DNA of 62,599 nt, counting the filler, from Hausera hauseri (lineage: Eukaryota): NCBI GenBank assembly GCA_046269625.1. It is 13 parts of 13 records of this genome, joined end to end, with 100 filler letters (N's around TTAATTAATTAA, not from the genome) between each part and the next. Parts side by side here need not be neighbours in the genome. Positions count along the whole stretch, not along the records: positions 1 to 4,730 come from JBJURY010458245.1; 12 more parts are not named here. One strand, written 5' to 3'. The notes under the pieces were generated by a model. That model ran no database searches, had not been told where the DNA came from, and saw only the letters and a list, made by a program, of their open reading frames with translations. The position numbers were made by a program, and so were the translations under genes. Positions 1 to 62,200 of the stretch are shown piece by piece; the first letter of the stretch is position 1, and the number at the start of each line of letters is the position of its first letter.

Positions 1-1915
1 TATTAATTTTTCTAAGATTGACCTCCGCGTCCCGGTCGATTGCGACGTAGTCGAAATGCTATTGACATGCCCAGAAATGTCGCCAGTGTGCCGTTCCTCA
101 AACATCGCTGACTTCAGTCAACCAATAAATTATAATGTGATAGAAAATCGGATCCCAACATTGTCGTCTAAACGTTAGCGACTGTGAACGTCCAGTGGAA
201 AGGTGAAAGAAATTTTGGTAAGATGAAAGATAATTTATCCATGCCAGAAATGTGCAGCGGTTGGCCTTAAGTAGTGTATAAGAGCTTAATTCTGAATGGA
301 GAATTTTGTACAGGAAAGGTTTATGGTAATAAAGAAATCGCTGCACCTGTATCGATGAGAAAATCAACAAATTGCGTTGTAGGAGCGGTGATTGCTGCCT
401 ATAAAGTAAAGACAGCAAAAGAGACGTGTCGGCGTTCAGAAAGTGAAGTAGTGCCTTTGCCAGAGTTTGCCGTCATTTCTGGCGGCGAACTTAGTTTTTT
501 TAAAAGGGTAAACTAGGACGACTATTAGAAGGAAAGATAGCACGTCTATTGTTCGTATCTGATTTGAAAGTGCAGCCTGGAATGCAATTACGAGCTTAAT
601 TTTTGAACCTTGCGTGATAGATGCAAACAACGGTGTCCGAGGAAAATCTCCTGTTATAAAATTCGCACCCCAGGCAGCACTTCTGAGCATTAATGTTAAA
701 TCTGCTGTGGTAATAGCAGATCGACGAAGGCGCAGGCGATGGTGAGCAATTTCTAGACGCAGAACGAACGCATTCAGCGACAAAATCCCCTCGGCGTGAC
801 AAAGAAAGGTCGTTTAATTTATTATTAATATTGTTGATTGTTGCGTGTAGTGCAATATTTTCAGCACGTAGCTGATTAAGCTGTTGTTCTATTGATATGT
901 TATTGGTTTGAGTATCGTTAGCTGCAACTGCTGCCGAAACAACTGGTAGGGAATTTACGTGTAGAACGTCGTGTGTCCTATCGGCTAATTCGGCCAATTT
1001 CTCAAGAGCCGTGGAGTCCTCCACCACGGTAAGTAGGACCCGGATTTGCATAGGTAACGCATTTAGGAAATAGTGTAGCAGTAGGTCTGGATTGTGTTTT
1101 TTAGTGACGCCGATGGTATGTAGATGTGCCAAAGAGATGCGTAGGAATTCTGATGGTAGTTGCGTGCCTATAGCATTGTTGTGGAAGAATCGTTGTATGA
1201 TCGTGTCCATGGAGTGTTCTGTGATCTTAAGAACGGCGTTGAAGAGTTGGGGATATGGGTCAGGAAGTTCAAAGATTTCGATGATGTTGTGAATTCGCGT
1301 TTTGATGTTGTTAGGGAGTAAGAAGAGAAGATTATGTGACTTGGTTAATGAATCAGTAATATTAATTGCCTGCAGCCATAGTTGATGGAATTGCAACCAA
1401 GTTTTGCTGGAGCCTTGCTTGTCAATAAAGAATTGGGTGCAGGGAGAAAGAGGAGCGGAAGAGGTAATAGGTGTGAGGTTGCTAGCAGGGGTACGAGTGG
1501 GTTTTTGAAGCAATATAACAGGTTTTGGTTTCGTGGTAGTTTTATGCGTGGTGTCTATGGTTGGCGATGAGTTCATGCCACCACGGGTACGGAAATGTAT
1601 GTGGAGATTAGTGTGGGTTGAAAAAGATGGTAGGGTTCCGGTGAGGGGTATTATAAAACCGTTAAATGTAAGATAGAAATAGGAAGAGTTGAGTAAGAAA
1701 GAAACGAAGCTATGAAGGGTTGCAATATGTAAATGTGATGTAATGAGTGTGTATATGTGTTCATTATTTAGGAAAAGGAAAATAGAGAGGGGGAAAGTAG
1801 TGTGCCTGGGGGTGTCTTGTGGGGATGACGCGAAAGGCGCCGTTTGATTGACCGGTGCAGGGTTGACGGCCGGGACCCCAGCCACGTCGCGGCGGGCCCC
1901 AAATTGCGGGGTGAC
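1..1915 (-). mobile_element. Decayed Ty3/Gypsy LTR retrotransposon: gag and aspartic protease
   Basis: ORF 596-2008 has Gypsy gag-like text (WLQFHQLWLQAINITDSLTK...LEKLAELADR...CYYHSRF...CC.GC). Protease site FLIDTGAAISL at about 330-362 (minus) and PR end MLGSDFLSHYNLLVD at about 125-165. A degenerate tRNA-Trp-like PBS (CGGTCACCCCG on minus) lies near 1907-1917. Confidence 0.8.
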
Positions 1916-1949
1916 CGAATTTCCCCTCAAAAGTGCGTCCATTGCTACT

Positions 1950-2963
1950 TGGCCTTTCTGAATTGCCATAATGACATTTGTAGGCTTGACTGCTCCGCGA
2001 TATTTCATAACAATCGATATGAATTTCCCTTTATTTAAGTCGGTTTAAGTCATTTGGTGATCTTTTGAGGAGACACGTCTTATAATTTGTTCGACCGATG
2101 GACTGGCATACTTAATTCGTGTTTCGTGCGGGATTGGAGAATGTTTCATTAATGCGTGGTGTATCCTTGGATACGGTATTAAATTTGTATGCATTTCTTT
2201 CAAACCAGACATCATCGTTGTTTCAAATCGCGCTGATGCTGTAGATGAGCTAATCATTAGAGATATTATTCGATTGAGATTAGGATAATTAGGTGAATTC
2301 ACAAATAATAGATATTTACAAACATCATAAATAGCTTCATTATTAAAAGGTGTAGGCAAATTACACGTATCTAGTGTTGTATGACTATGGAATAAGCTAT
2401 TGTATGGTTCAACAATCGCCGTAGGCATTATCGAGCTGGGAAACAATGCCAATTGTATTCGGTTTGTTTTGAGATAATCAACGGCTATTTGCTGCATTAT
2501 CAACGCACCAACTCTAGGCCCAGTACCACCACTCATACTGTTAATGACGATAAATGCATCAAAATTATTCGTAATTTCAGCTAGTTTAAATAGCTGTGGT
2601 AAAAAACAATCTTATTAGTTGTACACCAGAATTGAGGCTTCCTCGCGCACAACTGTTAACGGAATCTTCACAGTCAGTAATCATTGATTTTCCACTAAAA
2701 ATATTTCGATATGCACCAGTCTTAATATCATTTATGCATGTGGGCTATGAATCGACAAGTATCGTTTCTGGATTCAACTTACAGTGGTTTACTGGTAGGA
2801 ATAATACTGTCGTTCGGTCAGGTTCGTCAGCTAAATTATTATCTGTTAATGTTTTTAATCCATCTGGATCAATAGTGTGTTCAAGACATAATAATTCCCA
2901 CAGTGCACTGGCACACTGCACACCAAACTGACCAATATGTATAAAAGCGACTTCAGACGGCAT
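1950..2963 (-). pseudogene. Highly divergent alpha-tubulin-like pseudogene, 3'-truncated
   Basis: MPSEVAFIHIGQFGVQCASALWELLCLEHTIDPDG; SMSGGTG; IVEPYNSLFHSHT; FNNEAIYDVC; PNYPNLNRIIS; TNLIPYPRIH; YRGAVKP. It has an in-frame stop at 2745 and frameshifts, with no obvious introns. Confidence 0.85.
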
Positions 2964-3007: not shown

Positions 3008-3430
3008 TTACTGGCACCAATTGTAAATTCCAAAAGAAATATCCGCAATTGTTGAGTTCTGCCACGCACCGTCATCCAGTAGAGTATCCGACATGACATC
3101 AACTTTCACTAGTGACGTTTTTACTGACGTAATAGCGTCTTTTTTCTGAACGAATTCTTCTGCATTATCCAATAAGGCAATATTCGAGATAGTGTCTTGT
3201 TGTAACCATTGCAACGACTGTAAATTCGCGTATAATGGAATATTACAAGAATTGCAATTAGCTTTCGGTAAAGATTTGACATTCATGGGTTTCATGTTAT
3301 GAATATTACCGAATTTATTGTTTAATATAATTGCAGAACCGTTTTTTTTGTTATTGTCCATATTTACAATCATCATTATACGAGCACGATATGGAAGATT
3401 GTATAAACACTGACTGATTTCTGACACCAA
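3008..3430 (-). CDS. Unknown ORF or gene fragment between the structured terminus and the tubulin-like sequence
   Basis: 140-aa open frame, same orientation as the tubulin-like sequence; no recognised domain. Confidence 0.3.
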   Translation of the reverse strand: MVSEISQCLYNLPYRARIMMIVNMDNNKKNGSAIILNNKFGNIHNMKPMNVKSLPKANCNSCNIPLYANLQSLQWLQQDTISNIALLDNAEEFVQKKDAITSVKTSLVKVDVMSDTLLDDGAWQNSTIADISFGIYNWCQ

Positions 3431-3589
3431 TTTGTTGTTGAACTGGCCGATAAATATCCGGATATATAAAATATAAATTCCAAACGATAAGATTTAAAAA
3501 TTTAAAAAGCAACATGGTTGAATTGATTTATTTGACTTACTTTTCTTTTCTTGTCAAGTCAATTCACATATTTAAACAAATTAACATCT

Positions 3590-3763
3590 GTTCACAGGTT
3601 TTGCTTTAACAGCCTTTTACCGTAAAAATTTTGAGTAGGATAGGAATTGTGAAATTTCGAAGCGGAGAATCGGGCCCAATTGTGGGCCAGACGCGGCGGC
3701 AACTGACGCCCGGCCGTGCCTAACCAAATGGGCCAAAGGGCACCGTCCGCTGTAGGCACTACA
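3590..3763 (-). repeat. Structured ~175-bp element terminus, copy 1 (starts TGTAGTGCC on minus)
   Basis: Clearly alignable to 47916-48092; GC-rich multi-hairpin with compensatory changes. Confidence 0.85.
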
Positions 3764-4730
3764 CTTACCTTCATTTCTTCAATACTTTGTCTGTTCCTTT
3801 CAATATTTGGGAGTCTTTGGAGTTGTTTAATGTAATGCCGCGATTAGCTCCACTTCTGTCAAGGCTTTGCCTTTTGGGTTTGTCGACTCTGTGATAGATT
3901 CTGCATAGTTCTCAACAATATTTGCAACGTATGCGTGCCTGCTGTTCACCCTCTCTCCATATCTTTTCTGACCATACCCCGTCCTTTTGAAATTGTCGGT
4001 ATACGTATTTTGTACTCTTCTGCTCTTATCCAATTTTGTATAGCACTCTTCTTCCCTGTGCCCTCTGTTGTGACATCTATTGCATTTTATGATTATGCAA
4101 TTTCGCCTTATGTGTCCTTGCTGGCCACACTCATAGCATATTATGGGTTTCCTTCCCGGGCAATTCCTGTTAATGTGCCCTTCTTTCTCGCAACCAAAAC
4201 ATCTTGGTACATATTGGAGGTTGCATGTTCTGCTTGTGTGCCAGTCTTTTTGGCACGACCAGCATTTCATCGTGCTCTTTGCTGCGTATTGTGCAGTTTG
4301 AAGTCCTTTCTTTCCTGTCTTGGTTTGTCAAATTTGTTCACCGCCACATCCCGGTAACTCCGTCGACCCTCCCTAGTGTATTCTCTCATTGTGTTTATCT
4401 CTTCCGTCTTTGTTGCTACTTCGTGGACTTTCCGTATTATTTCTTTCATTTGTTCGACACTTTTTTCGTCACTGCAGTAAATTTCCTTTCTCAACTCTGG
4501 ATTGTCGCAACAGTGGATCATTAATTCCTCTGTTAGAGCTTCCAGTGTTACTTTGTGGCTAAGAATTCTCTTCGCCAGTTGTTCAATTTTGTTGAAATAG
4601 GCGTCCGATTCTGCTCCCCCCCCCTCATTCTGTAGTTCAAGGCCTCATGCATATCTCTGCAGAGCGTTGTGGGTTTTGAAAATGCTTTTCTCAACCGGTT
4701 TTGGTACCTTTTCACCTTTTGATTCACCAG
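3764..4730 (-). mobile_element. Ty3/Gypsy-type gag with four CCHC zinc knuckles (frameshifted)
   Basis: CWSCQKDWHTSRTC, CFGCEKEGHINRNC, CYECGQQGHIRRNC, CNRCHNRGHREEEC; interrupted at 3763 by the structured terminus. Confidence 0.8.
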
Positions 4731-14564: not shown

Positions 14565-17500
14565 GCACTCGACCAGACTGTACTCTTGGTAGTGTATTGT
14601 TGTTTATTATATTCGGATCTAATGTGTCCTTTGGTTCAAAGTATACTGGTGGATGGTCATCTTGCTGTATTTGGGCATAAATTATCATTTCTGTTCTTGA
14701 TGGAATGTTTTCGTCCACCGGTATCCATACCTCTCCAAATTTTCTTTCTGTGGCGTTTTTTATGCCTTTATTTAGTCCGATTTTATCAGCTTCCCCGTTT
14801 GTAAGTCAATCACTATATTCAGTAGTCTTTTCAGTAGATCACATCCTAAGACCATGTCGTCGGTTAATTGTTCCATAATTGCAAATTCATGATGAAAATT
14901 TTGTCCAACTATTTGGATTTCTAAGTTCCATTTAAACATAGGTTTCGAAATTTGACCAAAAACTACCGTGCTTCCCCGATCCTTTGTGGATGTCGGATAT
15001 AACTGTCCCCTTAACGAATGCGGTATCGATTCATTCTTAATGTAAGACATTTCGGATCCTGTATCGATTAAGGCAGAAACTTCCCAATCTTCAATGATGA
15101 TTTTGGGAGAGGGTCTTCCTTCTATTACTGTTCCGAAACAGTTTAACGCATCTTTTGAGCGTTTAGTGCTTGATATTTTATGTCCGTTGATTCGGATTTC
15201 GGGAGAGAATACTATATTTTCCGACAATCGTCTTAATTCTCGGTTTGATTGTTAGTGTGTAGTTCGGTGTTCTGAAAGGTTTTAAACCTTGGATTGTCCC
15301 AAACCGTTGATCTAGTTTCTATATTCCGAGGTTCTCTTGGAGAATACAACATCTTGAAACCATCTGTGGATTGTCGGTAACGCATTTTCCGTAGGATCCC
15401 GTAACGTTTCGTTCCTTCATAAGGGTCTTCTACATTAATTGTTCTTTTATTGATTTCCGTCTGATATGAACTCATTGATAGTTTGTCACAGTCTTTATAA
15501 ACTAGAGCAATAAAAGGTAGCATAGAAAATGGTGCTTTAATGACAGAATACGCTTTATGTCTGCTTATCCCTGAAAGTACTTATCCTCCTTCAGGATCGT
15601 CATCATTTGAATTATTTCTCCGTGTATTAGATTTTGTAAATTTCCGCTTTCGCAAGAATATAGGCCTTTCTTTTTGTTTATGATTATAGTAACCGACATG
15701 GCGTTCCACGTCCGATTTCCATCTATTTTCTTTGTATGCTTTTAAGAATTTTCCAAAGGGCGTTATGATTGCAGTCAGTATTTTACATGAAAATCCAGTC
15801 AATGTAAATATTTCATACCCATTAATTACTCCTTGGATGACCGCCTTAATTATTTGTATCAGAAATATATCGCTAAGTATCCGGATGCGGCTTGTCCAAA
15901 AATCAAAAATCTTCCCCAAATTTTATAAAGTATTTCTGTGGTTACTCGTTGATAATGGTTTACGTTGAGTAAAGATTCCCATTTAGCCTGATATCGTGTA
16001 TCGCCTACTACTGAGGCTATGGCTCGTTTTAATTCATGTGTTTGTTGTCGCGGGAAAGCGAGGAATTGTCCGAAAGCTTCAATTTCCTTAGGCCTGTATA
16101 TGCCTTTCGACAAGGTATTTTGAAATTTATCGTCCGTAATTCCTTTCGAAGGATTCATTATTGTTAATTTATTTGGGGCGGTTGTAATAACTCCATTTGG
16201 CAAACTAACCCAGTCTGTTTAAGTACGTCTAAACATGGGTTCTCCCAAGCTTGCCTTACAATATTTAAGAATGGTTGGTTGGATTAAATTATCCAATAAC
16301 ACGCTCGTCAACAGTGTAGCTAACCTTGGCGTATTCTGATAAATAACAGTAAGTTCCCGAATACAGCGTTTTTCTTCCACATTGATGGGTACATCTCTCT
16401 TTTCACATTCGTAAGTTAACAGTAATTCACCCGTGACTCGACCGAAAATTCCTTCTCTCATATGGATTATTGGAGAAGCCAACTCTGGGTTGGCATTTAT
16501 GAGGACCAATTTCTTCCTCATGACCTCGGTGTCTAATTTACAGTCACTCGTTATCAATTTGTGATATAATTCCGTTATTCCGATTGTCCTTTATAGTAAA
16601 ATTAATCGTCTCTGTTTTTCAAGTAGTCCTGAATCCGGATATACTGTGTTTCCAATTTATAGGTTTTCGCATTTATCTCGGTTTCGGCTATGAAGAACGC
16701 CTCATAGTTAGTAGCGAACATTACTACGTCACAACGGGAACTCATCTCCTTTTTAATAAAATTTAGTCCATGATGACCCGAGATTTATATAGTGGGTGTA
16801 GGTTGTTCCGATACGTCTTCATGTGTCCTTGAGTTGGTATCAGATTTATTCACCTATCGCTTTCCGGTAGTTTCATTAAACTTCAGTTCGTTAATTTTAA
16901 TAAAATTACAACTTCTTTTAGATTGAGGTTCCCACATTATAACAGAACTTCTAAAATCGCAGGTTCCATCTTGCAAATGACACTTTTGATTCTCGGTGTA
17001 TAACTTGGTGACACTATGAAACATTACTTTCTGTGACCGCATCTCCGATTCATAGAAATCCACGACTACCACGTTTGTTTGCAACCCTTTTCCGGTGTCG
17101 TATTCCGCTCCGTAACAATGTCCGCTATGCATATCCAATATTCCGACCACTACTTTGTATGTTCTAATTATCTTTCCTAGTTGCATTTCTAATTGCATAC
17201 TGTCCCATTGTATCCTCCCAGTCTCCTTGGCTTGTTTGCAGTGTTGGCGTTCTAAATTCATTGGAATTAGAGGAATTGTTGGTTTGATTATAGAGGAACG
17301 TCCGTGTACCAACCCACAATGAAAAATGCTACGAGATCGCCTCAGCATACATTCCATTCCATTTAACGATATCAATTCTTGTTGTTGATACAGGAGGTAA
17401 TTTTTCTCTCTTGTCTCCAACTTGTGCGGTCTGGCATCTTCGCACACTTCCAAATCCATTAAGGAATATCTCTGCCCTAGTTTAAACTTATCGCAGTCGT

Positions 17501-19950
17501 AAACGGTAACAGCGCTAATGTGCTTTATTAGCATCATCAAGGTGAGTAGGCTGATTAACCAGTTTGATTCATTTTTCCGGTAGCCAATATCCGCCGTTGT
17601 CAAATTACGTAACATATCGTCGAGTTTATTACTGGTTCGTCTGTCTTCTTCCTTGTCAAATAGTCTTGAGCAATTTACGTCGCAGAACAATCTTCTTCCG
17701 TGTCAAATAGTCTTGAGCAATTTACTTTGCATGGCAATCTTCTCGCCGCTTTTCGTGCCAAGCTTATAGCTCTATTGATTCAATTCTCTCGATTAGGGTT
17801 TATTTTAATAGCTAAGTATAGTAATACTTTTCTCAATTCCTCATTGGTGTTCTCTACCATGACCTTTTCGATTACCGATTCATCGGTTAAGTTACTTTTC
17901 GATAGTTTAAAACGTGAACTTCTCACGATTCTAACTGCATTGAATATACCTTCTCTTTATCATCTAGTGTGTCATCTCGAAGTCTCAAATAATTTACAAT
18001 TCGTATTAAATTCTTCATAAACTCGCTTAATTCTTCATTATCTGCGCTGAAAGTCGGAATTGACATTTGTCTCAATTCTCTTATCATCTCTCCATTATAA
18101 TAGACTTCTTCTCGCGTCTTCTTTGGCCTACCGACTGGATGTTTCTGTTTTGGAACATTAACTATCGTTTCACTTAGTGGTACTAAATTCTTGTCGTATT
18201 GCTCCCTGTCTTCATCCATTTGTAAATACTCGAAATACATTGCGGCGTCTCGGACTCCCATGATTTGTCCTACGCATTGTTCTGCATTAGCCCTACGCGT
18301 GGCTTCTTTTCTAGTTCGTTCATTGGCTATTATTACTACTACCCGATTTGTTTCGTCTGGAATAATTCCGACGTCTATTAACTGTTCTAAATCGTCTAGT
18401 ATTCTACCTCTAAAATAAAGTCTAATTTAGCTCGTTTGTTCCGCCATTATTATTTAACCATTCTCTTACGTCCCTTACATAAAAATAGATAGTTAACTCA
18501 CATTCATTTTCGTCCATCCACTCGAATGATATCATTACTTTCATCGTTACTTCAGGTCTAGCCCCCAAAATTTTCGCGTATTTCTTTATCAAAAGTTTCG
18601 GCACCGTACTATAAATTGTACTTTCACTATATAATTTAGTTAAGGTCGGAATAAGTTGTCTTAACTTACTTTCAGTAATGTTTACGTTAATTAGCTCAAT
18701 TAAATCCCTTTCAGTTAGCACTGAATCCAAGAGCATCTCCACATTGAATCAACTGTTCTGCGGACATGTTTCAATCTCATTTAATTGCACTGTAGTCACG
18801 GGTTTTTCGGCAATTACCGCATCTAAGTATGCATACCATTCCGGTTCATCTCCAACATCTTGAAGTCCATAGCCTATTAAGGCCGTATTCGTTTTTTGTA
18901 AATTTTCGCGAATTTCTTCCAATCTTGGTTGTATTTCCTTCATCTGCGTAATTCGGAAACTTATTCCATTTCCACAGACATACTGAATCATTTTCAGTAA
19001 TTTACCTAATTCACTAGAATTGATAAATCCCTTTTGGTGATAATCAGTTAGTTCGATAATTACATTTCTTTTCCATCTTTGTACAAACTCTCGCTTGCTT
19101 TTAATTTCTGATTCGATAAAAGCATACTTGTTTCGGTAAATTTCGAGTTCTTTCGCTAGTTCATCTAACCTTGTTGCCTTTTGCTTTGTTCTGATGCATG
19201 TTTCTTCTACTTTCTGTAACTTGGGCATCAATAGCCTCGTCTTCTGATCATTAATTTCCTCCATTTCTACCAATAAGTAACCTAACCCATACATCTCATT
19301 TATGACTTCTTAGTCGGGATCCATTGCATCTAACAATTTCTTTGCGAACTTAGATTCCTGAAAACTAAGATATTGCTCATCTCTTATGTTTGTCAACTCG
19401 GTATGGAAATTCTGATCCGATCCGGCCTTCCACTCTTGTGATTTATGCAAGAATTTTATTGCGTCCGTTAAAGCGACTCGATGTTCCGGACAAATGTCTA
19501 TGGTTGCAATATCTTGGACAGAGATCTCATCGATAGGTCTATCTGTTTAATGCTGAATTCCTTCTAGTCGGACATTTCTTAATCTTGGGTAAAACGTACA
19601 AGTCATATTTCGCTTTTCTGTAAAATTCGTCTCTTCGATCATTTTATAGATCTCCTCCAGTATCGTTGCTTCTTGTTTCTTTTTCATAAAATTTAGCCGT
19701 CGTAATGCTTCAAATTGAATTCGGATATCTATTTCTGCCTTTATTTTGTCTAAATTACGTGCGCTTCCTTCTAAGTGTTTCTTTATAGAGGGTCCACTCT
19801 CTGGAAATTCTTTCTTACGGTTTTCCACTAATTTACTTAATCGCGTTACTAATTCGGACCATTCCGATAATTGATTGACGATTAGTGGCTTTGCCATTAT
19901 AGCCTTATCTAGCATCTTATGTGTATCTTTTAACTCATCTTTGATCTAAT
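14565..19950 (-). mobile_element. Large Gypsy family copy: ORF1 (coiled-coil, UBL) - chuvirus-like glycoprotein - aspartic protease
   Basis: Collinear broken ORFs from 19915 to 14565; protease ALIDTGSEMSY and MVLGCDLL in ORF 14772-15227. Confidence 0.85.
15740..17565 (-). pseudogene. Chuvirus-type (class III-like) envelope glycoprotein, disrupted
   Basis: Signal WLISLLTLMMLIKHISA|VTVYDC..YSLMDLEVC; LLYQ..ECML.RSIFHCG; C.GAEY.....NVVV; C...DGTC; GRVTGE.LLTYEC; C..EL.V; GIY...F..FP; C-terminal hydrophobic anchor. Confidence 0.8.
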
Positions 19951-21029
19951 AGAGAATATATATCCATTTGGTAGATAACGAAGGAACAAAGAAATAACTG
20001 ATTGATTGTTTTTATTTTCTTTTAGCTAATTCAAACTATTAATCTATAATACAATCTTACAATAATCTATATACAATGTTATCTGTTCAAACAAAATGTC
20101 TCTTCATTAAACATCTTTCTGCTGTACTGAGACTGTTCATCAACGGCAATACCAAAAGAAGGAGCAGTGTCGGATAACTGGCCGAATAGATTTTGTACTT
20201 CAGGAGGAATCATTTGATTCGAATTTTCTATTCGGTTTGATGTGATAAATCGATTCAAACAATCGGGGAACGACGAGTAATAAGGACAGGGAAATTGAAC
20301 ATTGATGAGCAACTGTCCCGTAAAAAAGAAACCGAGTTTCTGAGCATTTCATTGTACTGCCATTATCTAAATTTTTGCATGAGATTCGATAGTATTCTTC
20401 TGACTGCTAGGAGACAACATTAAAAAAGTGTGAAATAATGTCATTTTTTATTAACAAAAATATAATTTGCTAGGTCACTCTGTCTGGTTGGAATACAAAT
20501 GACTGACGTCTGGCACGTCAAAATGTGATGGATCTGTTAATGGTGATGATATGTTGGAGATTTGGTTCATAATTGTGAGTAATGACTTTTTGATACGTAG
20601 GATCGCATGTCTGACATACGGACGTTGGTGCCAGCACTCCGGCGAGAAACCGAGCTGTGCCAGCGACCATGGCACCACATCACTGCCCCGTGTAGAAAAC
20701 AGACTATGTAAAAGTGAAACAGAATGATGAAGATAATATAGATGAGAGCAAGTGAGTTGTGAAAAAGGAGCAATGTTTGATGCCTATTCGGTTTTGGTAT
20801 GAGTTAAACGTTGTGTGCCATCAATAAACCTTTCTCTGCTGTATGTATTGAATGTCACTCTACGTACCTTTCTCGATGGATTAGCGCTGGGCTGTTGTGT
20901 AATATTTTGTGATGGGGGTGATAGCGAAGATGAGTCAAGCAAGAAAGGAGATGAAGGTTGTGAGCATGATGACGGAGAGTGAAGTGAAATGGATGGAGGA
21001 AATGATAATGATTGAGTGTAGTCGAGTAG

Positions 21030-21788
21030 TTATTGCTGCAATGGCGCAAAATCGTTTAGAAAGTCAGTAGAATTGCTAGCTGAGTCTGAATTAAGTGTAG
21101 AATTGTTATCTAGAATGTCGTCAATGAAAAAGACAGGCTTCAGATTCGAAATGTGGACGTTATAAGGTTTATCTTGCCGTAAGATTGTTGCCGCGTGAGA
21201 TGAAAGATTCAGCAGTTTGTATGGGCCAGCACATTGAGGTCTAAAACCAGAAGGAGATTGATCTTTTAAACACGTAAACTTGGCGGCGTATAAATCCTTT
21301 GGAATGTAGGATTTGTTGTTATTAAAGATGCGGCAGAATGAATCTGAGCTGACCTCGACGAAGTGAGATTGTGCCGCACGAATGTTTTCGTCTGCAGGAT
21401 TGTGGTCGAGATGCGAAAGCTCAAATAAGGCCAAAATTGAAGTCCCAAAGAGTGCTTCGGCTGGAGCGCAACCGGTAGTGGTCGAAGGTGTGTTTCGACA
21501 ACCTAGTAGAACAAATGGTAGAATGGACGTCCAATTACGATTAATATCAGCCAACATTTTTAATGAGACCTTCATTGTATGATGGAACCTTTCAAGAAGG
21601 CCGTTTGCTTGAGGATGATATGGTATTGTATGAAAATTGGATATCCCCAAGCGTTTGACAAGTGATTTGAAAAGCTCAGACTCAAATTGTGGACCCTGGT
21701 CCGTTATTATATAACGTGGGGAACCAAAGCGACTGATCCAGATTTTTATGAAGGCGTCAGCAACTGAATCAGTGTTTGTTGAACGAAG
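21030..21788 (-). mobile_element. Ty3/Gypsy integrase core remnant (different family)
   Basis: WISRFGSPRYIITDQGPQFES; TIPYHPQANGLLERFH; GPY motif. Confidence 0.85.
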
Positions 21789-23691: not shown

Positions 23692-26600
23692 TTGGCTCAA
23701 ATCCACGAGCCGGAAAATTGCCACAATAATATGAAGAAGTACTTTGGCCATACGTACAACAGGGTTCAGTATTATATATGCCTTACATGTGAGGTAGTGT
23801 GCCAAATCAATTATGACGACTTTTACAATGTCTATGAACAGCAGTTGATTCTTCACCATGTCGAAAAACAAATATTCAGTACCAATATGCCAATAACGAC
23901 TTTCGTGCCGAAGGAAAATCGAGGGTGAAGTTCATATATTTATTGCACATGTGTAATACACAACCCTCAGAATTGCCACAATGCCATGAAGAGCTATTAT
24001 GAACTCAAATTCAATAGGATCATCTATTATATCTGCCCAGGATGTGAAGCTGTATGTGATGGAGAATACATACAATTTTATGAAGATCACAAACATTATT
24101 TGACTGACTTGGCATCAAAGTCAAAAAAGATCATCTTTAATGACAATAAGACAGTTGCAACACAGCCTGCACCACAACGGCTTGTAGTACCACAGCCTGT
24201 AGTACTACAGTCTGCAGTACCACAGCCTGCAGAACAGCCAGACGCAGGACTAAAACGCGCATCGGGCGCATCAGGCGCATCAGGCGCAGCGGCTCCATCA
24301 AATAGTCAAAGACAGCGGCTAGTTGATGCTGCAGCATTAATGAAAAAATGCCGCAAATATGTCATTGATGCAACTGGTCAAACAACCATAAAGGAGTCCC
24401 TGGAGTACACAGAGGAAGAAACAGAGGGGATTCTTTAGGACAACATAGCTGAGCTCAAGGCCATTAAGGCTAATATGAAACTTGAGTCCACATACGTCAA
24501 TGTTGATGGCAAAGAGTCCAAAAGGGCCTTTAAGACAAGACATAGACCCATTTTGAAGCCACCAATATAGTAGAATGGCTGCATGAAGAGCATGCAAAGC
24601 TGATCCGTGAATCCGATGAGAGTCAGTATAAGAAGAGCGGATGGACTCTGGCAACCATCAAGAGATTGCTTGTGTATGTTCACAAGTACTCTCTAATGCG
24701 GAGCAGTTCTTATATACATCTTCCGAAATGGATCGCTAATAAAATGCATGTGTCAATGTCCATAATAATGACAACAAGTGTTTCATATATGCCATTCTAT
24801 CAAAACTCGTACCGGATCAAAAATATGCAGAAGATCGAGTTTGGCTATATGATGATTTGAAGCACAACTATGACTTCCAGTGTATCACATTCCCTACATC
24901 CTTAGATGCAATTAAGAAGTTCTGCCGAATCAACAACATATCCATCAACACCATTGGATTCGATGAGGAGGACAAATTTTATCCCCTGCAGATATATGAT
25001 ACTGAATTGGAAGATCATAGGGATCTGCTCCTACTAGACGATGGAGAAAAGACACATTATGTTTGGATCAAGAATCTTGAGCGTCTAGTCAGATCCCAAA
25101 TTACGAAACATAAGGAAAGAATAGAAATATGTAAACGATGTCTGTCTCATTTCAGTGGTGATACAGCAATGGACAAGCTTGCAGAGCACAAAATGTACTG
25201 CAACAACAATTAATGTATCAGGTCAGAATTTCCTAAGGAGGACTATATTGAATTCAAGGAGTTGGAGAAGAAGATCAAGGTCCCAATAGTTATCTATTGC
25301 GACTTTGTAGCTATTCTCGGGCCAATTCACAGCTGCACTCCCAGTCCTCAACACAGCAGCACAGCGGCATAGCAGTATCATGAACTCTCATCGTATTGCA
25401 TGTATTCCAAAGGATTGGACAGTGAACCATTTCTATTCAGAGGTCCAGGCGCAGCAACACATTTCATGAAACGACTTGAAGATATGGCTCATAAGCTTGA
25501 AAATATGCTTCAGCAACATAAGGATAATATGAGCATATATAAGCAGCAAGACGAAGAATGGCGCAGGGAAACAATATGTTACTTGTGCTCCAAGTCATTC
25601 ACCAAGGAAAATCATAAAGTAAAGGATCATTGCCATTTTACAAGTGCATATCGGGGCGCAGCATTCAACTACTGCAATCTGCGTTGCAAAACATGTACAT
25701 ATGTGCCTGTAGTGTTCCACAATCTCAGTGGCTATGATTCCCATTTAATAGTCCGAGAATTAGGCGACATTGAAGGAAACATTGAGGTGATACCTAATAG
25801 TGAGGAGAAGTATATCACATTTACGAAGCATGTGGGCCGCATCAGACTTCGCTTCATTGATAGCTTCCGCTTCATGAGCTCGTCACTGGACAGTTTAGTA
25901 AAGAACCTCCCTGCAGAAGAACTCAAGGAGACGAAGCGGTTCTTCCCCACTACCTTTGACCTGGTTAAAAGGAAAGGCGTGTTTCCTTATGACTACATAA
26001 CCTCATGGGAAACACTGGATGAGACTTCATTGCCGGACAAGAAGGAATTTTACAATATCCTCTCTGATTGCGATATTAGCGATGCTGACTACCAGCATGG
26101 CCAGAAGTTCTGGCATGCATTCAATGCCGAACATTAGGAGAATACAGCGACATATACCTCAAGGCGGACGTGCTGTTGCTCACAGATGTCTTTGAAAGTT
26201 TCAGGGATGTTACAATGAAGAGCCATGCTTTGGATCCGGCTCATTTCTTTACGACTCCATGGATGAGCTAGACAGCTATGCTGAGATATACCGGCATAAG
26301 GCTGCAGATCATTAAGAATTACGACATGATCCTTATGATCGAGAGAGGCATTAGAGGTGGAATATGCCAGGCCATTCATCGGTATAGCGAGGCCAACAAC
26401 AGGTATATGACCCAGTATGATCCATCCAAGGAATCCTCATATATATCATACCTGGATGCCAACAACTTGTATAGCTATGCAATGAGCGCCTCATTGCCGT
26501 ATGATAACTTCAAATAGGTCGAACGCCCTTAAAACATTTCTATATTGGACCTGGATCCCACTGTAGATACGGGATACATACTAGAGGTGGATATGGAATA

Positions 26601-27899: not shown

Positions 27900-30800
27900 T
27901 GCAACAGCAATCGGTCGATTTACCAGTAGTCCATCTGCCATCATTTGTCGGAGCAGTTCGTCTTGATTGATGTTTGCCAGCTCAAGAAAAAAGCTGCTAT
28001 GTCACCGGCAACGATACTGATCTCACAGCCGTCAAACATTTGCCGGTAACGTGCAAAGTCGCGATACTGGAGCTCGTACATTTGCAACTTGCTCAGATCC
28101 AATACCATTTGTCCGAAGTTACTTTGACGGTCCAGAATGACTTCTTCCCGGTTTAACAGCACAGCATCCAATCCATCGAAAATGTGCATTGACCACCGAA
28201 ACTTCACCTTACTTATGTACGTGACAAACTGCTTTTCGCTATATCATGGGCGTATATTGAGCTGTTTTTTCAGATTCTTCACTACTTTTCCGTATAGAGA
28301 ATTGTTTTTCAGCTTGTAGTAGTCCTTTCCGAACTTTGTGCAAGCTGTGGATCGTTTCTCTGAATTTCCATCTACGTACGCCTTGAAGATGGGAGCCTGA
28401 CCGAATCGCATTGCACGATGCAGCTGTGTGACGCGTACACCCAACTGTATGTAGAACTGTAGCACATGCCAATGGACCACGTAGTTCAGCTTCGGTTCAT
28501 GCGTCATGAGCAGTTTCTTCACTTTTGAGCCTGGTGGACATTGGTTAAATGGTGCGACCGCTAAATCGTCCAAAACGTCATGCAGCTCATCTGATACCAC
28601 GACATCGACCTCCATCAGGTATCCGACTGAGCTTGTCATGTCTGCTCGTGGTAACTTAAGCATTATGTCGTCCAGATTTTGCCTGTCGACTACCCATTCG
28701 AATGAACCGTACGGCAAGGATTGCGAAAGCGCCCAGTCGTACAGGTTATTAATATCAATATACAGCAGTGATGTGGTATCGACGGTAGTACTGACCTGAT
28801 GCTTGTTGACAAAAGTCATGCCACAGCGAATACCAACATCAAACAGCCGGTACATTTCCGTGTCTTGCAGCAACTCAATGTCTCGATCCAGTGACATTAG
28901 AGTTGACGCCCAACTCATTCTCGGTATGGAATAAAAGTTGAGTCGCTCCAGTTTATATTCCGCCAAGGCTTTCGCCCAAAACGCCTGGAACACGTTGGTT
29001 AATAAGTAGATGTCCAATTTAAGATACTGGAGCATGTACTCCAACATGTTTCTACAGCCGAGCTGGATCCAAGATTTTTGTGGTCTCCAATATTCAGCTT
29101 CTGTGATGCTTGTCCATCGCGATGATAATTCGTCTGCTGTCCGGAGTAGCTCATACGATGTTGCAAAGTCATATGGAAATATGCCTTTGCTGCGTGCGAT
29201 ATATGCGGGGAACTGCGTCAGTGCTATCGGCACATTTGGCAAGGCATTAACCAGTATTGCCAGAGATTCATTGAGAAATTGCAATGAATCAAGGAAACGT
29301 ACCTGGAACCCGTTTATACAAGCAGTGATGGATATTTCTCCATCGTAGTCAGAATTATGGATAGTTCCAAGTGCAGAAATTTATTTATTGCCCATTTCAG
29401 AATATGGTGACAATCATAACACCTGAAGCTATGAAATACCACCGGTAAGAATTGCCGCATACGCCTTGCAAAATTGCATGAATTACATGCTGCTCCGAGA
29501 TATCAACCAGTAAAATGATCGTGATCCGGTACGAGTCGTTCCAGTGCGTCAAACGGTGATATTCTGTGGCATAGGAAACATTCATCGGTCGCAGCGAATA
29601 TCAGAGGTACATATTCATCTGTGCATATCAACGGTTTAGTGGAATTATTACTATACCACGGTTCTACTTTTGTTTCCACTATCGTTTCCAAATGCTGCAA
29701 AAAAATCACGTATACAGGTCAAGCCGTGAAAGTGTAATACTGCGGCTCGCCGACCGCTTTTATTGGGACAACCAACATACGAACGGCGGCTGGAACATGT
29801 TTTTAATCATACTCGTTGTGCCGTTGTAGAATTCCTCCAATATCGGCATATACCACATATGCCGGACTGTCCGTTTTTGACCAGTCATTGAATCGGAGCT
29901 CCTTTTTGAGTGGCATGACGTACATGTTGTTCCCGTTGAATTCTGCTTGCACAGCGTCACATGTTTCTCCCATGTTGTTTTCGACCTGAAACCATGCAGA
30001 TATACAAGATACCACTTACATTGTAAACTCTTTTCGACAAACTGATGGTGATCTATGTTCAGCAGTCGGTCCAAATTGGTCACTGCCATGTAATAGAACT
30101 TTACTTTTTGCTCTAGCAGTAACAAATATATTGGGCGTCCACTTGCGTTCCGACTTCAATAAATTATGTCCACATAGGGGTTCTTATATATTTCTTCGTT
30201 TGCCGGTATTTCTATTATTGTACTGTACCGCAACACATTTATTGCCAGTATTGTATTACGCCGTTCAAAAGCCGGAGTGGTTTTCAGTTTCATCGGCATC
30301 CAGCATTCATCGAAATTTAATTCGATAAAGTACTGCCGATGCTGATTTGGACGATTTGCACTATGTCTGTCCAATTGGTTATATTTTATTACCGCCATGA
30401 TACTGTAAAGAACATAGTATTCGTCGTCAGTATTTTTTACATTCAATACTGCATGTGAATGCTGCAGGGCTGTTGGTGACGGTATGAGTGATCGCCCGGA
30501 CAGGTAAATTATGTCATTCGACTTTGTTACGACAAACCGAGAGTGACTATTTTTATAATTTGCCAGCCACCATCCTTTTCGCTGTAGTTGGTAATTTTTT
30601 CATTGAGCTTTCGCCTACATCGGCAATAAAATTATCGGAATACGGTTCGGCTGGATCCGACAGGTACCACTGTTTCCTGTCACCTTGCAAGTTTTCAAAT
30701 TTTGCAAGTAAGTGCATAATATTGCACTAAGTAATGGTCTTGATTTTGTTTGATTTTCTCCAATTCGGATTCCAACAGTTTGCGCACATTATGCGGAACA

Positions 30801-40022: not shown

Positions 40023-41408
40023 NNNNNNNNNNNNNNNNNNNNNNNNNNNNNNNNNNNNNNNNNNNNTTAATTAATTAANNNNNNNNNNNNNNNNNNNNNN
40101 NNNNNNNNNNNNNNNNNNNNNNATTAACAAACGTCTGATGAAAGCCTACATTTATATGATTTAAAATTAGAAAACTTCGCGGACACATAAAGTCTTGGCT
40201 GAAGCTATTCTCCCATTTACAGATAATTGTTAGAAGTTCTCATTAATTACTTGAGAAGAAATAAATCAAGGTAGGAGAGTAGAATTTTATGTATAGAATA
40301 AAATTAAATACGAGACATATAGGTCCAAGAGTAACAAGGTAAGATTAGTTGTTTCGTGCTAAAACGAATGCCAAGTTACATTTCTAAATTCTCTCCAACC
40401 CCAGCCGCCCCGACCAGCTGAATCATCAGGCACTATACCATTTTTTCTTTGTCTCTATAATTATTACAGCCACTGAAGCCAGATGTAGGCCAAACTCATT
40501 GGGACAGCACCCTCCACATCATCGTGAGGTTATGAAAACATTGGCTGAACAGATTACAACTCTTCCCACGTACAACTGGTCAGATGACACATCATAACAT
40601 TGATACGAAGTCATCTCATTAGCACTATATCATTCGCCACGAGAGTTGACTGCCACCTACACAGTTGCAGACCTCAAGCCTTTGTTCACCGGTCGGCGTC
40701 CTGAAAAACACTATTTGTCACCAGACCAGAGGCGTATCTTCCTGTTTATGTACAGCGACCGATCTACACAAGTGGTGACAGCCACAGATAACAGTCATCG
40801 CTACCGACCAGACCAACGTACCAATATCATCCCAACCCCTCCACTTCAACCGGAAATTATGGGTCAACACAACGATCCGACCAGCTAGTGTTTATCCACC
40901 GTCATTCACATGTTACCTGTGACGTGGACATAGATACCTCCACAACCTCAACACCCACCGCTGCACATCAACACGTCAGCGATTACAGACCCCCCCTCAA
41001 TTAACACTGCAATTTCTCTCCACAGCGTCAGCACAAACAGATAGACATTCCAATCAAGTCCGAAGTCAACAAGTAGCCACAGAAGCACAAGAGAAAATCA
41101 AGACCAAGATATAATAGACATTTTTGTTTGTCATGTGTTTTTGTTTGTTGTCCAACATGCAAATGTAAAATGATTTTGTTGAAAAAAAAAACACTAAATA
41201 ATATGTTTGTAACCGTGTAAGACAGGATATTATTAGAGAAACACATTGACATATAAATATATATGACTTATATCTTAAAGACCGATGACATAATATGGGA
41301 CTGATATTTATTCTTAAAAAAATTATTTAATAATTTTTTTTCCCTGGACTGTGAAGGAATGATACAGAACAAAAACATAGACCAGCGGAAATGACCTAGG
41401 GTTAATTA

Positions 41409-45816: not shown

Positions 45817-46905
45817 TCAACTTCTGACTCTCTTATTGTTCCTTCTAATTCGATAAGCCGAATCCAGAGATGACCTTATTCTTCCAAACGTTACATTTGT
45901 ATATCCATTTCGATCGTCAGTAGATTTTATGTTGCAGATTTTGTCTAAAAGCTGGGAAATTATATCATGAAGCATTAAGGTTTTGTCTCCGGGAAGTTTC
46001 GTACAAATCTTGATGATTTTTTTAACGTAGACATTTATACTATAGTTCAAATGGAACATACTCAATGACATCGTATTTTTTAACTCAATAAGTTCCTTTT
46101 GCATCTGAAACTAGAAAGAGTCAAATTCCGATTCATCATTTCTGATTGCGTCTTTCAATTTAAAATTTCTGGTTTCCATTAAGTCTCGATCTTCATTTAA
46201 CTTATCTACATCACCTTTGATTTGGACGACATTTTTCTGAATTTCTAAATTTCTGTTAAACCCAGATTTAGATGTTTCTCGTTCGAGAATATTACGTTGC
46301 TTAAGATTCTTTTCAACTTTCGATTTGATAGAATCAAATTTAGCATTTTGTGATACCATTTCAGTACTTTCTATCAGTGGGTATCGTACCTGAAGTTCGT
46401 GGTACAATCCGTCTACCTCATTACAATCGTATTTAAGCTGTACCAATTCTTCCTTGAAAGAGTCGATTTGCGTGCGCACCTCGATATGTCGATATAGTGC
46501 GTATTCATGGTCCTCTCGGTCTTTCATGATAGTTTCCGAATCTGATTGTAAACTTTCTGCGAGTTTAACACTTGAATCAGATTTTTCGTTAACAGCTGTC
46601 ATATTTGAGTAAATTCCCCTCGCTGTAGCAACCGTGGCTGATGTAGTAAAACTTGTACCAGGTATATTTGGATAGAGAGTACTAGGAACAATGTTAGAAT
46701 TAGAAACTGGTATCCTCCTCAGAAAATCCAAAAAACAAATAACCATTGTTCGTGGTGATAATACAGTCGGAGTCACCAGCTGTGAACGAATTACCGCTCC
46801 TGGATATTGCACTGCACTAAGTAAATTTGGTACTTTTACTTTAGGAGCTAAATTTCTCATAATCCTTGTAAAGTAATCTTGTACAGATGTAAAAAAATAT
46901 TTCAA
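45817..46905 (-). pseudogene. Captured coiled-coil protein gene fragment
   Basis: ORFs 46111-46905 and 45817-46104, heptad-rich, inside the hAT-splitting insert. Confidence 0.5.
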
Positions 46906-47314: not shown

Positions 47315-47503
47315 TTAAATGGCTTCTGTTGAGTTGGCAAAACTCCGAACCGCTTGTGCATTGATACGTTGTTCGGAGTATTTATCTTCAGGTGAATATT
47401 TAGCCGGATGGGCACAAATTGTTGGTTTCATTGATTGATCAAATGCTTTTAACGTATAAACTCGTTTGCCATTTTCACCCAAATAATAGCGCAGATTAAA
47501 CAT
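47315..47503 (-). pseudogene. NOP10: H/ACA snoRNP subunit NOP10 copy, intronless, frameshifted near C-terminus
   Basis: [20 protein letters not shown]...[19 protein letters not shown] is the NOP10 signature. Confidence 0.9.
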
Positions 47504-47529
47504 TTTCCAAATTCACAATATGGTGGCGA

Positions 47530-47649
47530 TGGAAAGATGAATATCCATTCTTGAATTAAACAATTCTTTAAACTACTGAACTGTTGCATTGTTTGAAACT
47601 GAAAATTCATGTGTTGGCCATCCAGAGTCTTTACTTTCACGTCAAACAT
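47530..47649 (-). pseudogene. Truncated ubiquitin-like N-terminal fragment (BAG6-like)
   Basis: MFDVKVKTLDGQ...; after a frameshift ..ATVQ*FKE.. Confidence 0.55.
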
Positions 47650-47915
47650 AATTTGCTATTGATGAATTCAACAAATAAGTTAATTTTGTTGTTCAGTTCA
47701 CGGAGCGATGTAGAGATTTTCGCACCTTTCGATACAAATGACTCAGTTTCGCTGAGAGTAATTGTTTTAGACAACTGGTGACTTTCCATTGCCGCAATCT
47801 CTGATTGAGTCAACGGCTTCGGGTGAATGACTTCGTTTTTTCAGTTTGTTTATCCGTCTGAAAAATCGTACGTCTGCTTAGTAGAATATTTCGATCTGTT
47901 TGGGTCGTGGTCTAA

Positions 47916-48092
47916 GTTCACAGGTTTTTTGCTTTAAAAGCCTTTTACCGTGAAATTTTTTGAGTAGGATAGGAATTGTGAAATTTCGATGCGGAGAATC
48001 GGGCCCGACTGTGGACCCAATGCGGCGGCGACGGACGCCCGGCCGCGCCCGACCAAATGGGCCAAAGGGCACCAGCCGCTGCGGGCACCACA
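47916..48092 (-). repeat. Structured ~175-bp element terminus, copy 2 (starts TGTGGTGCC on minus)
   Basis: Alignable with 3590-3763; forms the exact right boundary of the insert in the hAT gene. Confidence 0.88.
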
Positions 48093-56888: not shown

Positions 56889-57253
56889 TGTGTAAATTAA
56901 CGCCATACTATTCCGCGGGCTCTACGGGGGTTTCAAGTGGAACGAAGGTCTCATTGCCCGGGATCCAGGGACGGAGCCCCCTGGTGGGGTGTCGGGGGCG
57001 AACTCCCCACGAAAAGTGCGGGTATTGTGTAATATGCATATATTATGTAATATTCGTGCATTATATAATATGCGGGTATTGCGTCAAAATAGTTTTTTAA
57101 AAGAAAAAAATTTTTTTTAATTTTCAAAAAAAAATTTTTGTTAGTAAACCATTTCGACTTAGAAAATTTTTTTAAAAATTTTAATTTGCTGATATTACAT
57201 ATTATGCGTATATTACATAATATGCGGCACATCGAAACCTGCAGGATATTCAG
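56889..57253 (+). mobile_element. Transposon-like terminus with GC hairpins and an internal inverted repeat
   Basis: Starts TGT; CCAGGG..CCCTGG and GGGG.CGAA.CCCC hairpins; imperfect IR 57016-57054 / 57191-57230. Confidence 0.45.
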
Positions 57254-59239: not shown

Positions 59240-62200
59240 CAGTATTTTACATGAAAATCCGGTTAGTGTAAATATTTCGTATCCATTTATTACTGCTTGG
59301 ACGACTGCCTTAATCATTTGTATCAGAAAATATATCGCTAAAAATTCTGATGCGCCTTGTTCAAAAATTAAAAATCTTCCCCAAATTTTGTAGAGTATTT
59401 CTATTGTTACTCTCTGATAGTGGTTTACGCCAAGTAACGATTACCATTTAGCCTGATATCGTGTATCATCTATTACGGACGCCATAGCTCGATTTAGCTC
59501 GTGTTTTCTTTGTCGTGGAAAGGCAAGGAATTGTCTGAAAGCCTCAATTTTCTTCGGCTTGTATATACCTTTTGACGAGATGTCTTGAAATTTATCGTCT
59601 GTCATTCCCTATGCGAGATTCGTCCCTGTCAGCTTGTTAGGAGCGGCAGTGATACCTTCATTAGGTAAACTAACCCAGTCTGTCTCGCTACGTCTAAATA
59701 TGGGTTCTCCCAAGCTTGCTTTGCAATCCTTAAGAATGGTTTGTTGTGTTGCGTTATCCAACAGCACTGTCGTCAATGGTGTAGCTAATCTTGGAGTATT
59801 CTGATAAATAACAGGAAGTTCTAGGATGCAACGTTTTTCTTCTACGTTGATGGGTACTTCTCTCTTTTCACATTCATAGGTTAGCAATACTTCGCCCGTA
59901 ACTCGACCGAAGATTCCTTCTCTCATGGGAATTATTGGAAAAGCTAATTCTGGGTTTGCATATATAAGAGCCATTTTAGTTCTCATAATTTCGGTATCCA
60001 ATTTACAATCATTCATTATCATTTTATGATATAATTCCGTTATTCCGACTAGTCCTTTATAGTAGAAGTAATCGTCTCTATTTTTCAGGTGGTCCTCAAT
60101 CCGAACATCCTGCGTTACCAATTTGTAGGTTTTTGCGTTTATTTCTGCTTCGGCTACGAAGAACGCTTCATAGTTTGTGGCCAACATTACTACATCGCAA
60201 CGAGTCATCATCGCTTTTTTAAAAATTTTAGTCCATGCGGATCTGAGATTAATATAGTAGGTGTAGGGTGTTCTGATACATCTTCGCGTGTCCTTGAGTT
60301 AGCTTCTGATTTATCCATATATCGTTTTCCGGTAGTTTCATTAAACTTTAGCTCCTTAATTTTGATGAAATTACAAATTCTTCCAGAGGGAGGCTCCCAT
60401 ATTATAACCAAACTTCTAAAAACATGTTCCGTCTTGTAAATGACATTTTTGATTCTCAGTGTATAACTTAGTGACGCTATGGAACATTACCTTCTGTGAT
60501 CGCATTTTTGATTCGTAGAAATCCACAACTACTACGTTTGGTTCTAATCCTTTTCCGGTATCGTATTCTGCTCCATTACAATGTCCGGTGTGCATATCCA
60601 GCCTTCCAGCCACTACTTTATATGCTCTAAATATCTTTCCTGGTTGCATCTCTAATTGCATACTGTCCCATTGTACCATTCTATTCTCTTTGGCTTGTTT
60701 GCAGTGCTAACGTTCTAAATTCATTGGAATTAACGAAGTAGTTGGCTTAATTATGGAGGAATGTCCGTGTATTAGGCCGCAGTGGAAGATACTACGTGAT
60801 CGTCTCAGCATGCACTCCATTCCGTCTAACGATATCAATTCTTGTTGTTGATATAGAAAGTGACTTTTCTCTCTCGTTTCCCGTTTGTGAGGTCTGGCAT
60901 CCTCGCATACTTCCAGATCCATTAAGGAATATCTCTGACCTAATTTAAACTTATCGCAATCATAGACGGTTACTGCGCTTATATGCTTTATTAGCATCAT
61001 TAGGGTAAGCAAGCTAATTAGCCAGTTCGATTCATTTTTCCGACCTCCAACGTCTGATGTTGTCAGACTACGCAACATATCGTCGAATTTATTATTGTTT
61101 CGTTTGTCTTCTTCCTTGTCAAATAGTCTTGCCCAATTTACTTCGCAAGGCACTCTTTTTGCTCCTCTCCGTACCAAGCTTATAGCCCGATTGATTTCAC
61201 TCTCTCGATTAGGATTTATTTTGATAGCTAAGTATAACAATACTTTTCTCAATTCTTCATTCGTGTTTTCCACCATGATATTTTCGATTACCGATTCATC
61301 AGTTAAGTTGCTTTTCGATAGTTTAAAACGCGAGCTTCGCATCATTTTGGCTGCATCGAAAATTATCTTTTCTTTATCAACCAACACATCTCGGAAACTA
61401 GAATAATTCACAATTCGTATTAAATTTTTCATTAACTCGCTTAATTCTTCATTATCTGTGCTAAGAGTTGGGATCGACATCTGTCTCAATTCTCTAATTA
61501 GCTCTCCATTGTAATCTACCTCTTCTCGCACTTTTCTGGGTTTGCCTACTGGGCGTTTCGGTCTTGGACCTTTAGTGGTTGCTTCGCTTAGTGGTACTAA
61601 ATTTATGTCGTATTGTTCTTTATCTTCGTCCGTTTGCAAATATTCAAAATATAGCGCAGCGTCTCAGACTCCCATAATTCGTCCTACGCATTGTTCTGTT
61701 TTGGCTTTACGTGTGGCTTCTTCTTTTGTCTGTTCATTAGCTATTACTACCACCATCCGATTTGTTTCGTCAGGAATAATCCCAACTTCTATTAATTGTC
61801 CTAATTCATCTAGTATTCTACCTCTAAAATAAAATCTGTAATTTAACTCGTTTGTTCCACCATTGTTTACTAGCCATTCTCTTACATCCTTTATGCAGGA
61901 ATATGTAGTCAACTCGCATTCTTTTTCGTCCATCCACTCGGATGACACCATTACTCTTATCGCCACTTCGGGTTTAGCCCTCAGGATTTTAGCGTACTTC
62001 CTTATCAAAAGTTTCAGCACCGTACTATAGATCGTGTTTTCGCTAGATAATTTAAAGTTGGAATACGTTGTCTTAATTTATTCTCAGTAATATTTACATT
62101 AATTAATTCAATCAAATCCCTTTCAGTTAGCGCTGAATCTAGTAGCATCTCCACGTTGAACCTCCTGTCCTGCGGACATGCTTCTATTTCGTTTAGTTGT

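Follow-up and report, generated by a model that had tools for sequence, protein, structure and literature searches.

A high-copy mobile-element terminus in Hausera hauseri, most likely the 5' end of a CsRN1-clade Ty3/Gypsy long terminal repeat with a widely shared GC-rich head

The DNA analyzed here (the window) is a 62,599-nt stretch of Hausera hauseri composed of 13 unrelated contigs of 4 to 7 kb each with N linkers between them. It is eukaryotic and holds many decayed mobile elements, represented by fragments of retroviral-type protease, reverse transcriptase, RNase H, and integrase, together with env-like fusion proteins and protein-primed DNA polymerases. CpG dinucleotides are not depleted in it (observed/expected, 0.93), which, with the element types, suggests an invertebrate animal. 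A first-pass annotation had described two copies of a minus-strand feature, and blastn confirmed them at 3590-3763 and 47916-48092, with 87% identity over 177 columns. No third copy was found in the window by blastn, nhmmer, or a covariance model. Exact-pattern scans for further copies returned 0 viral contigs and 0 genome contigs, and the single metagenome contig matching the exact pattern was dismissed as a chance 21-mer in unrelated coding sequence. Public sequencing contigs from three runs (X1 and X2 among them; none was listed as RNA) were compared with both loci. The two copies and their heads are as follows.

3587..3763, minus strand: copy 1, the first 177 nt of the LTR family of copy 2, shortened by a likely nested insertion
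3655-3763, minus strand: GC-rich head of copy 1, 109 nt
47657..48092, minus strand: copy 2, a likely full-length LTR of 436 nt, from TGTGGTG to ...TCAATA
47984..48092, minus strand: GC-rich head of copy 2, about 70% GC, the most widely shared part of the family

The feature had been placed at an element terminus, and the contigs bear this out, with a sharp end at TGTRG and about 150 to 245 varied flanks. At 3763, 149 X1 contigs run into varied flanks (agreement, 0.37). Among the contigs listed for copy 2, X1 contigs break off at 48092 (146 contigs), 48093 (32 contigs), and 48094 (67 contigs), and 11 X2 contigs break off at 48092. A sharp end starting with TG was thus seen at many insertion sites for both termini, as in an LTR. 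Among these listed X1 contigs, 67 of 245 match two further letters of the copy 2 flank, where about 10 would be expected (p ~1e-35). The majority line of those 67 (agreement, 0.56) shows, on the minus strand, a G-run and TGA directly before TGT; at 3763, the corresponding line opens likewise. The G-run and TGA upstream of TGT read as the polypurine tract that would precede a 3' LTR; it counts against the LTR reading that this tract is drawn from majority lines of modest agreement among the listed loose-end contigs.

Copy 2 is multi-copy (depth, about 50 to 240) down to about 47657, and the depth beyond is 7 to 8. A 175-nt mini-LTR running from TGT to ACA was rejected since copy 2 remains multi-copy to that point. 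No target-site duplication was found at copy 2, and the far end of copy 1 is absent; the search gave a 4/5 match at 3266, which is within chance. Neither AATAAA nor a TATA box occurs in copy 2 as an exact motif, and both may have decayed, because copy 2 differs from its paralogues at many sites. At 47640-47901, X2, which carries another organism code, contributes low-depth contigs aligned over 111 nt (5 differences) and 144 nt (6 differences), one of which covers the LTR end of copy 2 together with its flank. A close relative thus likely carries this same insertion.

Copies 1 and 2 cease to be similar at 3590 because a second LTR is likely nested in copy 1, whose surroundings hold the following.

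3433..3586, minus strand: likely second short LTR nested in copy 1, 154 nt, TGTTA...CAACAACA, with AATAAA at 3532
3419..3429, minus strand: primer-binding-site-like TGGTGTCAGAA of the Leu tRNA type, belonging to the nested element
3764..4300, minus strand: zinc-knuckle gag region (PF00098) of a different, very high-copy retrotransposon, interrupted by copy 1

The TGT of the nested LTR, at 3586, starts 3 nt after the similarity between copies 1 and 2 ends. A nested element is the reading because TGGTGTCAGAA sits behind a TGT...ACA unit and the depth peaks there (3385-3458, with multi-copy sequence on to about 3269). The TGGTGTCAGAA match is single in the window, and one 11-mer match with one mismatch is expected by chance. 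For the Steamer primer-binding site, the available part of PMC8905726 gives 12 nt, of which TGGTGTCAGAA reproduces the first 11 exactly; that paper describes a Leu-tRNA primer site for Steamer and related C-clade Gypsy elements and LTRs of 153 to 219 nt. Copy 1 is probably an LTR that was truncated and holds a nested insertion, and the 175-nt length of the shared feature is likely an accident of that insertion. On the other side of copy 1, contigs of all three runs continue past 3764/3770 with other letters. The gag region upstream was therefore rejected as the feature's own gene, because its contigs diverge at 3764/3770 and the gag family continues differently from there.

A second junction of the same kind lies elsewhere in the window.

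20680..20689, minus strand: comparison locus, a purine tract and TGA directly before an LTR that starts with TGTGGTGCC at 20679
21030-21650, minus strand: integrase ORF with a GPY motif, about 350 nt upstream of the LTR at 20679

This junction reads GGGGCAG-TGA-TGTGGTGCC and is an independent example of a purine tract and TGA before an LTR. The first 9 nt of the LTR, TGTGGTGCC, are the same as the first nine of copy 2; beyond them, its match to the covariance model was not significant (E = 6.2). No relative of the integrase was confirmed in scans that included DNA context. Within 20680-20720 (minus strand), the purine tract is closely preceded by a CTACA that could pair with the TGTGG opening the LTR. 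Such pairing would loop out the tract in a Sirevirus-like manner; the minimum free energy fold uses a different register. Another likely LTR start lies at 40987 (minus strand), where a G-run is followed by TGTAAT and a primer-site-like motif, TGGTGAC, occurs at 40723.

The terminal motifs were compared with those of known clades. Table 3 in the available part of PMC3601003 lists TGTGGYG as the 5' LTR integrase motif of the CsRN1 clade and MSYYAMA as the 3' motif; the 13 CsRN1 training LTRs there measure 146 to 409 nt, and integrase specificity is placed in the terminal 8 to 15 bp. CsRn1-like LTRs are described in the accessible portion of PMC2582038 as running TGT...ATA or AAA, with 4-bp duplications, a Trp primer site, and a CX2HX9CX3C gag. 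The sections available of PMC3630058 add the GPY motif as a clade feature, and those of PMC8220671 cover general LTR features only. Both copies carry a version of the 5' motif.

3757..3763, minus strand: likely integrase attachment motif of copy 1, TGTAGTG, 6/7 to TGTGGYG
48086-48092, minus strand: likely integrase attachment motif of copy 2, 7/7 to TGTGGYG

TGTGGYG is short, with 11 matches in the window. Copy 2 ends with ATA at 47657, where MSYYAMA is absent, and its length exceeds the range of the CsRN1 training LTRs. A CsRN1-type, DUF7041-like gag with the CX2HX9CX3C (CHCC) signature lies in the first contig, at 718, and belongs to another insertion; the GPY integrase of the window likewise sits in another element. 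No internal region (tRNA-Trp primer site, gag, or pol) is attached to either copy, and the clade assignment accordingly draws on the terminal motifs and the neighboring element. The identity of the feature as an LTR is well supported. Its placement in the CsRN1 clade, made from sequence motifs, is likely only, because the motifs fit but the duplication, MSYYAMA, and the internal region are absent.

Downstream of each LTR copy, and on its strand, lie fragments of host genes that lack introns, at 47315-47649 and about 1950-2963 (both minus strand). After copy 2, an ORF of ubiquitin-like appearance (no Pfam match) starts 8 nt past the LTR end and is followed by a frameshifted NOP10 (PF04135; E = 3.6e-16); downstream of NOP10 lies a 264-amino-acid ORF without a family match (46111-46905, minus strand). 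After copy 1 comes a divergent alpha-tubulin with stops, whose matches are mixed and 35 to 56% identical. LTR-mediated retrocopying of host genes is possible. Tubulin and NOP10 as cargo of the family was rejected as unshown, because depth drops to the single-copy level right beyond the repeats. At about 596-1949 (minus strand), the 3' part of the tubulin pseudogene holds the insertion of a CsRN1-type LTR that has a GC-rich head of its own and leads into a CHCC gag.

Remains of other elements are spread through the window. Broken ORFs matching the Monjiviricetes fusion glycoprotein PF24664, which are env-like genes, occur at 16854-17690, 59609-60211, and 60707-61639 (minus strand) and sit in several related retroelement fragments. 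Fragments of protein-primed DNA polymerase B at 24857-26137 (plus strand) and 28244-29284 (minus strand) are Polinton-like remnants, one of them with an endonuclease VII-like stretch. At 56889-57060, a GC-rich block (68%) is followed by short AT-rich tandem repeats.

The first-pass annotation had also seen in the feature a conserved multi-helix fold with covariation. On the minus strand, all five helices can be drawn as it wrote them, and the RNAalifold consensus of the two 109-nt heads includes each of them. The covariation itself was not confirmed. Between the heads, 17 of 109 positions differ, as do 8 of the 26 named pairs: one pair is compensatory (4-10, in head numbering), four are retained through G-U (3-11, 22-47, 57-63, and 78-89), and three are broken (18-98, 26-43, and 75-92). 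Pair shuffles equaled the observed values in 261 of 500 cases, a weak test with two sequences. When these 17 substitutions were placed randomly in 1,000 trials, the consensus energy was equal or better in 20% and 10.5% of them, and at least 23 of the 26 pairs were retained in 36% and 10%. Overall, the covariation nulls gave p values of 0.10 to 0.36, depending on the measure and the starting copy, for two full sequences only. Most stem differences were said to keep pairing through G-U on the minus strand only; 4 of 5 one-sided transitions do run that way, but the excess is not significant (binomial p = 0.19). A consensus fold with 2 double changes was obtained for the plus strand as well, and one plus-strand null gave a p value of 0.047.

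Folding of the individual copies was modest. For the full copies on the minus strand, z was -1.08 and -2.15; for the first 105 nt, it was -1.92 and -1.93 on the minus strand versus -1.47 and -0.24 on the plus strand. Neither copy by itself is predicted to form the entire fold. Alone, copy 1 forms inner hairpins one and three at a probability of at most 0.03, and copy 2 forms the terminal hairpin, the closing stem, and the first inner hairpin at 0.01 or less. The two copies favor different folds.

Variants in the contigs were then set against the named pairs. Forty of 127 variants were listed, none of them covering the first 41 nt. Among the X1 variants listed, the head holds 13, of which 8 are unpaired, 3 frequent ones (50%, 82%, and 85%) keep pairing, and 2 rarer ones (17% and 24%) disrupt pairs unless compensated. 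A 96% variant at 3721 restores pair 26-43. In one subfamily line, judged by eye, A-T replaces G-C at pair 77-90, but pair 80-87 is lost. Sense-strand C-to-T changes numbered 32 against 22 G-to-A changes (p = 0.30) in one count and 19 against 12 (p = 0.29) in the other, neither difference being significant. CpG decay as the cause of the transitions was rejected because the window is not depleted of CpG (0.93). The predicted RNA fold is plausible, without statistical support; the data favor a maintained fold slightly and do not establish it.

Searches for known RNA families were negative. Across the whole window, Rfam gave two chance matches (E = 0.51 and 0.65) and none below an E value of 0.5; at both loci it gave five (E = 1.2 to 7.5), of which nothing was credible. 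The best Rfam overlap was rmf, on the opposite strand of copy 1 only, with 17.3 bits against a gathering threshold of 45 (E = 1.2). ARAGORN predicted 0 tRNA or tmRNA genes. The hammerhead core motif CTGANGA was absent from both strands of both copies, and a Pol III B box was found in neither copy. The ribozyme and ncRNA-derived-head readings, also proposed at first pass, are left unsupported by these searches. That annotation had named a lack of significant covariation across many copies, or a strong hit to a known RNA or TE family, as what would tell against its structural reading; in part, both are what we found, since covariation was nonsignificant in the readable copies and the boundaries fit a Gypsy LTR, a known kind of transposable element, as judged from those boundaries and not from a TE-library match.

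Sharing across the family is far wider for the head than for the LTR body. Summed contig depth is 58,000 to 79,000 at head positions 22 to 57 (48036-48071 in copy 2), 14,000 at positions 58 to 75, 1,200 to 2,800 at positions 76 to 110, and about 100 to 500 in the LTR body; this summed depth is no copy number and shows only how much more widely the head is shared than the body. Several long X1 and X2 contigs stop at 47984, the head boundary of copy 2. The tail described as conserved is confined to a subfamily, as seen in the fall of depth from the head to the tail. In the portion of PMC3601003 at hand, U3 is described as the part of an LTR that is ordinarily conserved least. We found no description of a structured U3 head of about 110 nt for CsRN1 or Gypsy LTRs in a literature that covered few subscription journals.

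These data are best explained by a high-copy mobile element whose terminus this feature forms, very probably the 5' (U3) end of an LTR of the CsRN1-clade Ty3/Gypsy group. Copy 2 would be a solo-like LTR and copy 1 a truncated one. By analogy with LTR biology, the first 7 to 15 nt would be the integrase attachment site. In genomic RNA, the head would sit within the 3' LTR, immediately past the polypurine tract from which plus-strand DNA is primed, and these roughly 110 GC-rich nt would be passed on together with the LTR end. An origin as the head of a non-LTR element (a SINE, an ncRNA-derived repeat, a ribozyme-bearing retrozyme, a Penelope-type end, or the end of a DNA transposon or Helitron) is improbable. 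A structured, GC-rich head leading into an AT-rich body, with no target duplication or internal region seen, would suit such an element, but the purine tract and TGA lie upstream in many contigs, the TG start fits the LTR integrase motif, the far end of copy 2 has no inverted terminal repeat, and the searches above gave no Rfam or tRNA match, hammerhead core, or B box.

Given an LTR end, we consider the chance that the head does nothing beyond the attachment site to be about even; among additional roles, an RNA fold comes ahead of a double-stranded promoter block. The packaging or replication signal that had been suggested does not show significant covariation. A cis-acting RNA role may still apply, the fold being on the sense strand of the element. 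Beside the polypurine tract, such a fold would assist plus-strand priming or packaging, an idea that we favor weakly. A selected multi-helix signal, serving as a plus-strand priming aid or as a packaging or dimerization site, is accordingly a tentative reading. It is consistent with the sense-strand location, with z values near -1.9 for the head in both copies, with the 8 of 13 listed head variants that are unpaired and the 3 frequent paired ones that keep pairing, with the restored pair 26-43 and the A-T for G-C exchange at 77-90, and with a GGGCCC palindrome in both copies. A precedent exists in the inverted repeat around the Sirevirus purine tract, for which such a role is proposed in the available part of PMC2829016. 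Against it stand the nonsignificant covariation, the 17% and 24% variants that break pairs unless compensated, the loss of pair 80-87, the nonsignificant C-to-T excess, and the preference of the two copies for different folds.

A broader form of the same idea, that many CsRN1-type LTRs carry a selected RNA element at the U3 start that is retained family-wide while subfamilies exchange the remainder of the LTR, is somewhat more doubtful. That element would act beside the polypurine tract in plus-strand priming, packaging, or dimerization through GGGCCC. If real, it would be a 3'-end cis-element of which no description was found for animal Gypsy elements. To our knowledge, the 3' ends of animal Gypsy genomes are poorly mapped for RNA signals. 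The head might instead act as double-stranded DNA, as a CpG-island-like U3 enhancer with palindromic binding sites, its hairpins then being a side effect of the palindromes and the high GC content; we regard this as unlikely. The perfect palindromes CGGCCG and GGGCCC occur in both copies, and two other LTR starts in the window are GC-rich (54% and 62%) without significant folding (z = -1.14 and +0.78). As far as the sources were available, U3 normally holds promoter elements (PMC3601003) and Sirevirus LTRs carry palindromic CpG-rich boxes (PMC2829016). The palindromic sites here are not repeated, however, and a CpG-island contrast is not evident because the window shows no CpG depletion.

As it stands, the LTR end described here is an unannotated LTR family, of use to repeat annotation and little more. 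If its fold is selected, the importance would be modest, and the many diverged copies would make covariation directly testable.

Several known systems resemble parts of this locus. Retrozymes reportedly carry hammerhead ribozymes in their LTRs; the feature is like them in having a structured RNA motif in the LTR of a possibly nonautonomous element and unlike them in having neither a hammerhead core nor an Rfam ribozyme match. The nested insertion, and it only, resembles Steamer and the Mag C-clade of Gypsy elements in its 154-nt TGT-to-ACA LTR followed by a Leu-tRNA primer site, but it has no visible coding region and starts with TGTTAAT rather than TGTAACA. Sireviruses (Ty1/Copia), as described in the available part of PMC2829016, likewise start U3 with a conserved palindromic sequence that is GC-rich and lies beside the purine tract. 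There, one arm lies upstream of the tract, which is looped, whereas here the predicted helices all lie inside the LTR; Sireviruses also belong to a different superfamily and have plant hosts. The closest likeness is to the CsRN1 clade (CsRn1, Kabuki, Boudicca, PwRn1, and AgCR). Although copy 2, at 436 nt, exceeds the training range for that clade and the copies come without a linked internal region, a Trp primer site, or a 4-bp duplication, the LTR shares with it an exact TGTGGYG in copy 2, the ...ATA end (though not MSYYAMA), and a purine tract upstream in a subset of copies, and a CHCC gag and a GPY integrase occur in the same window.
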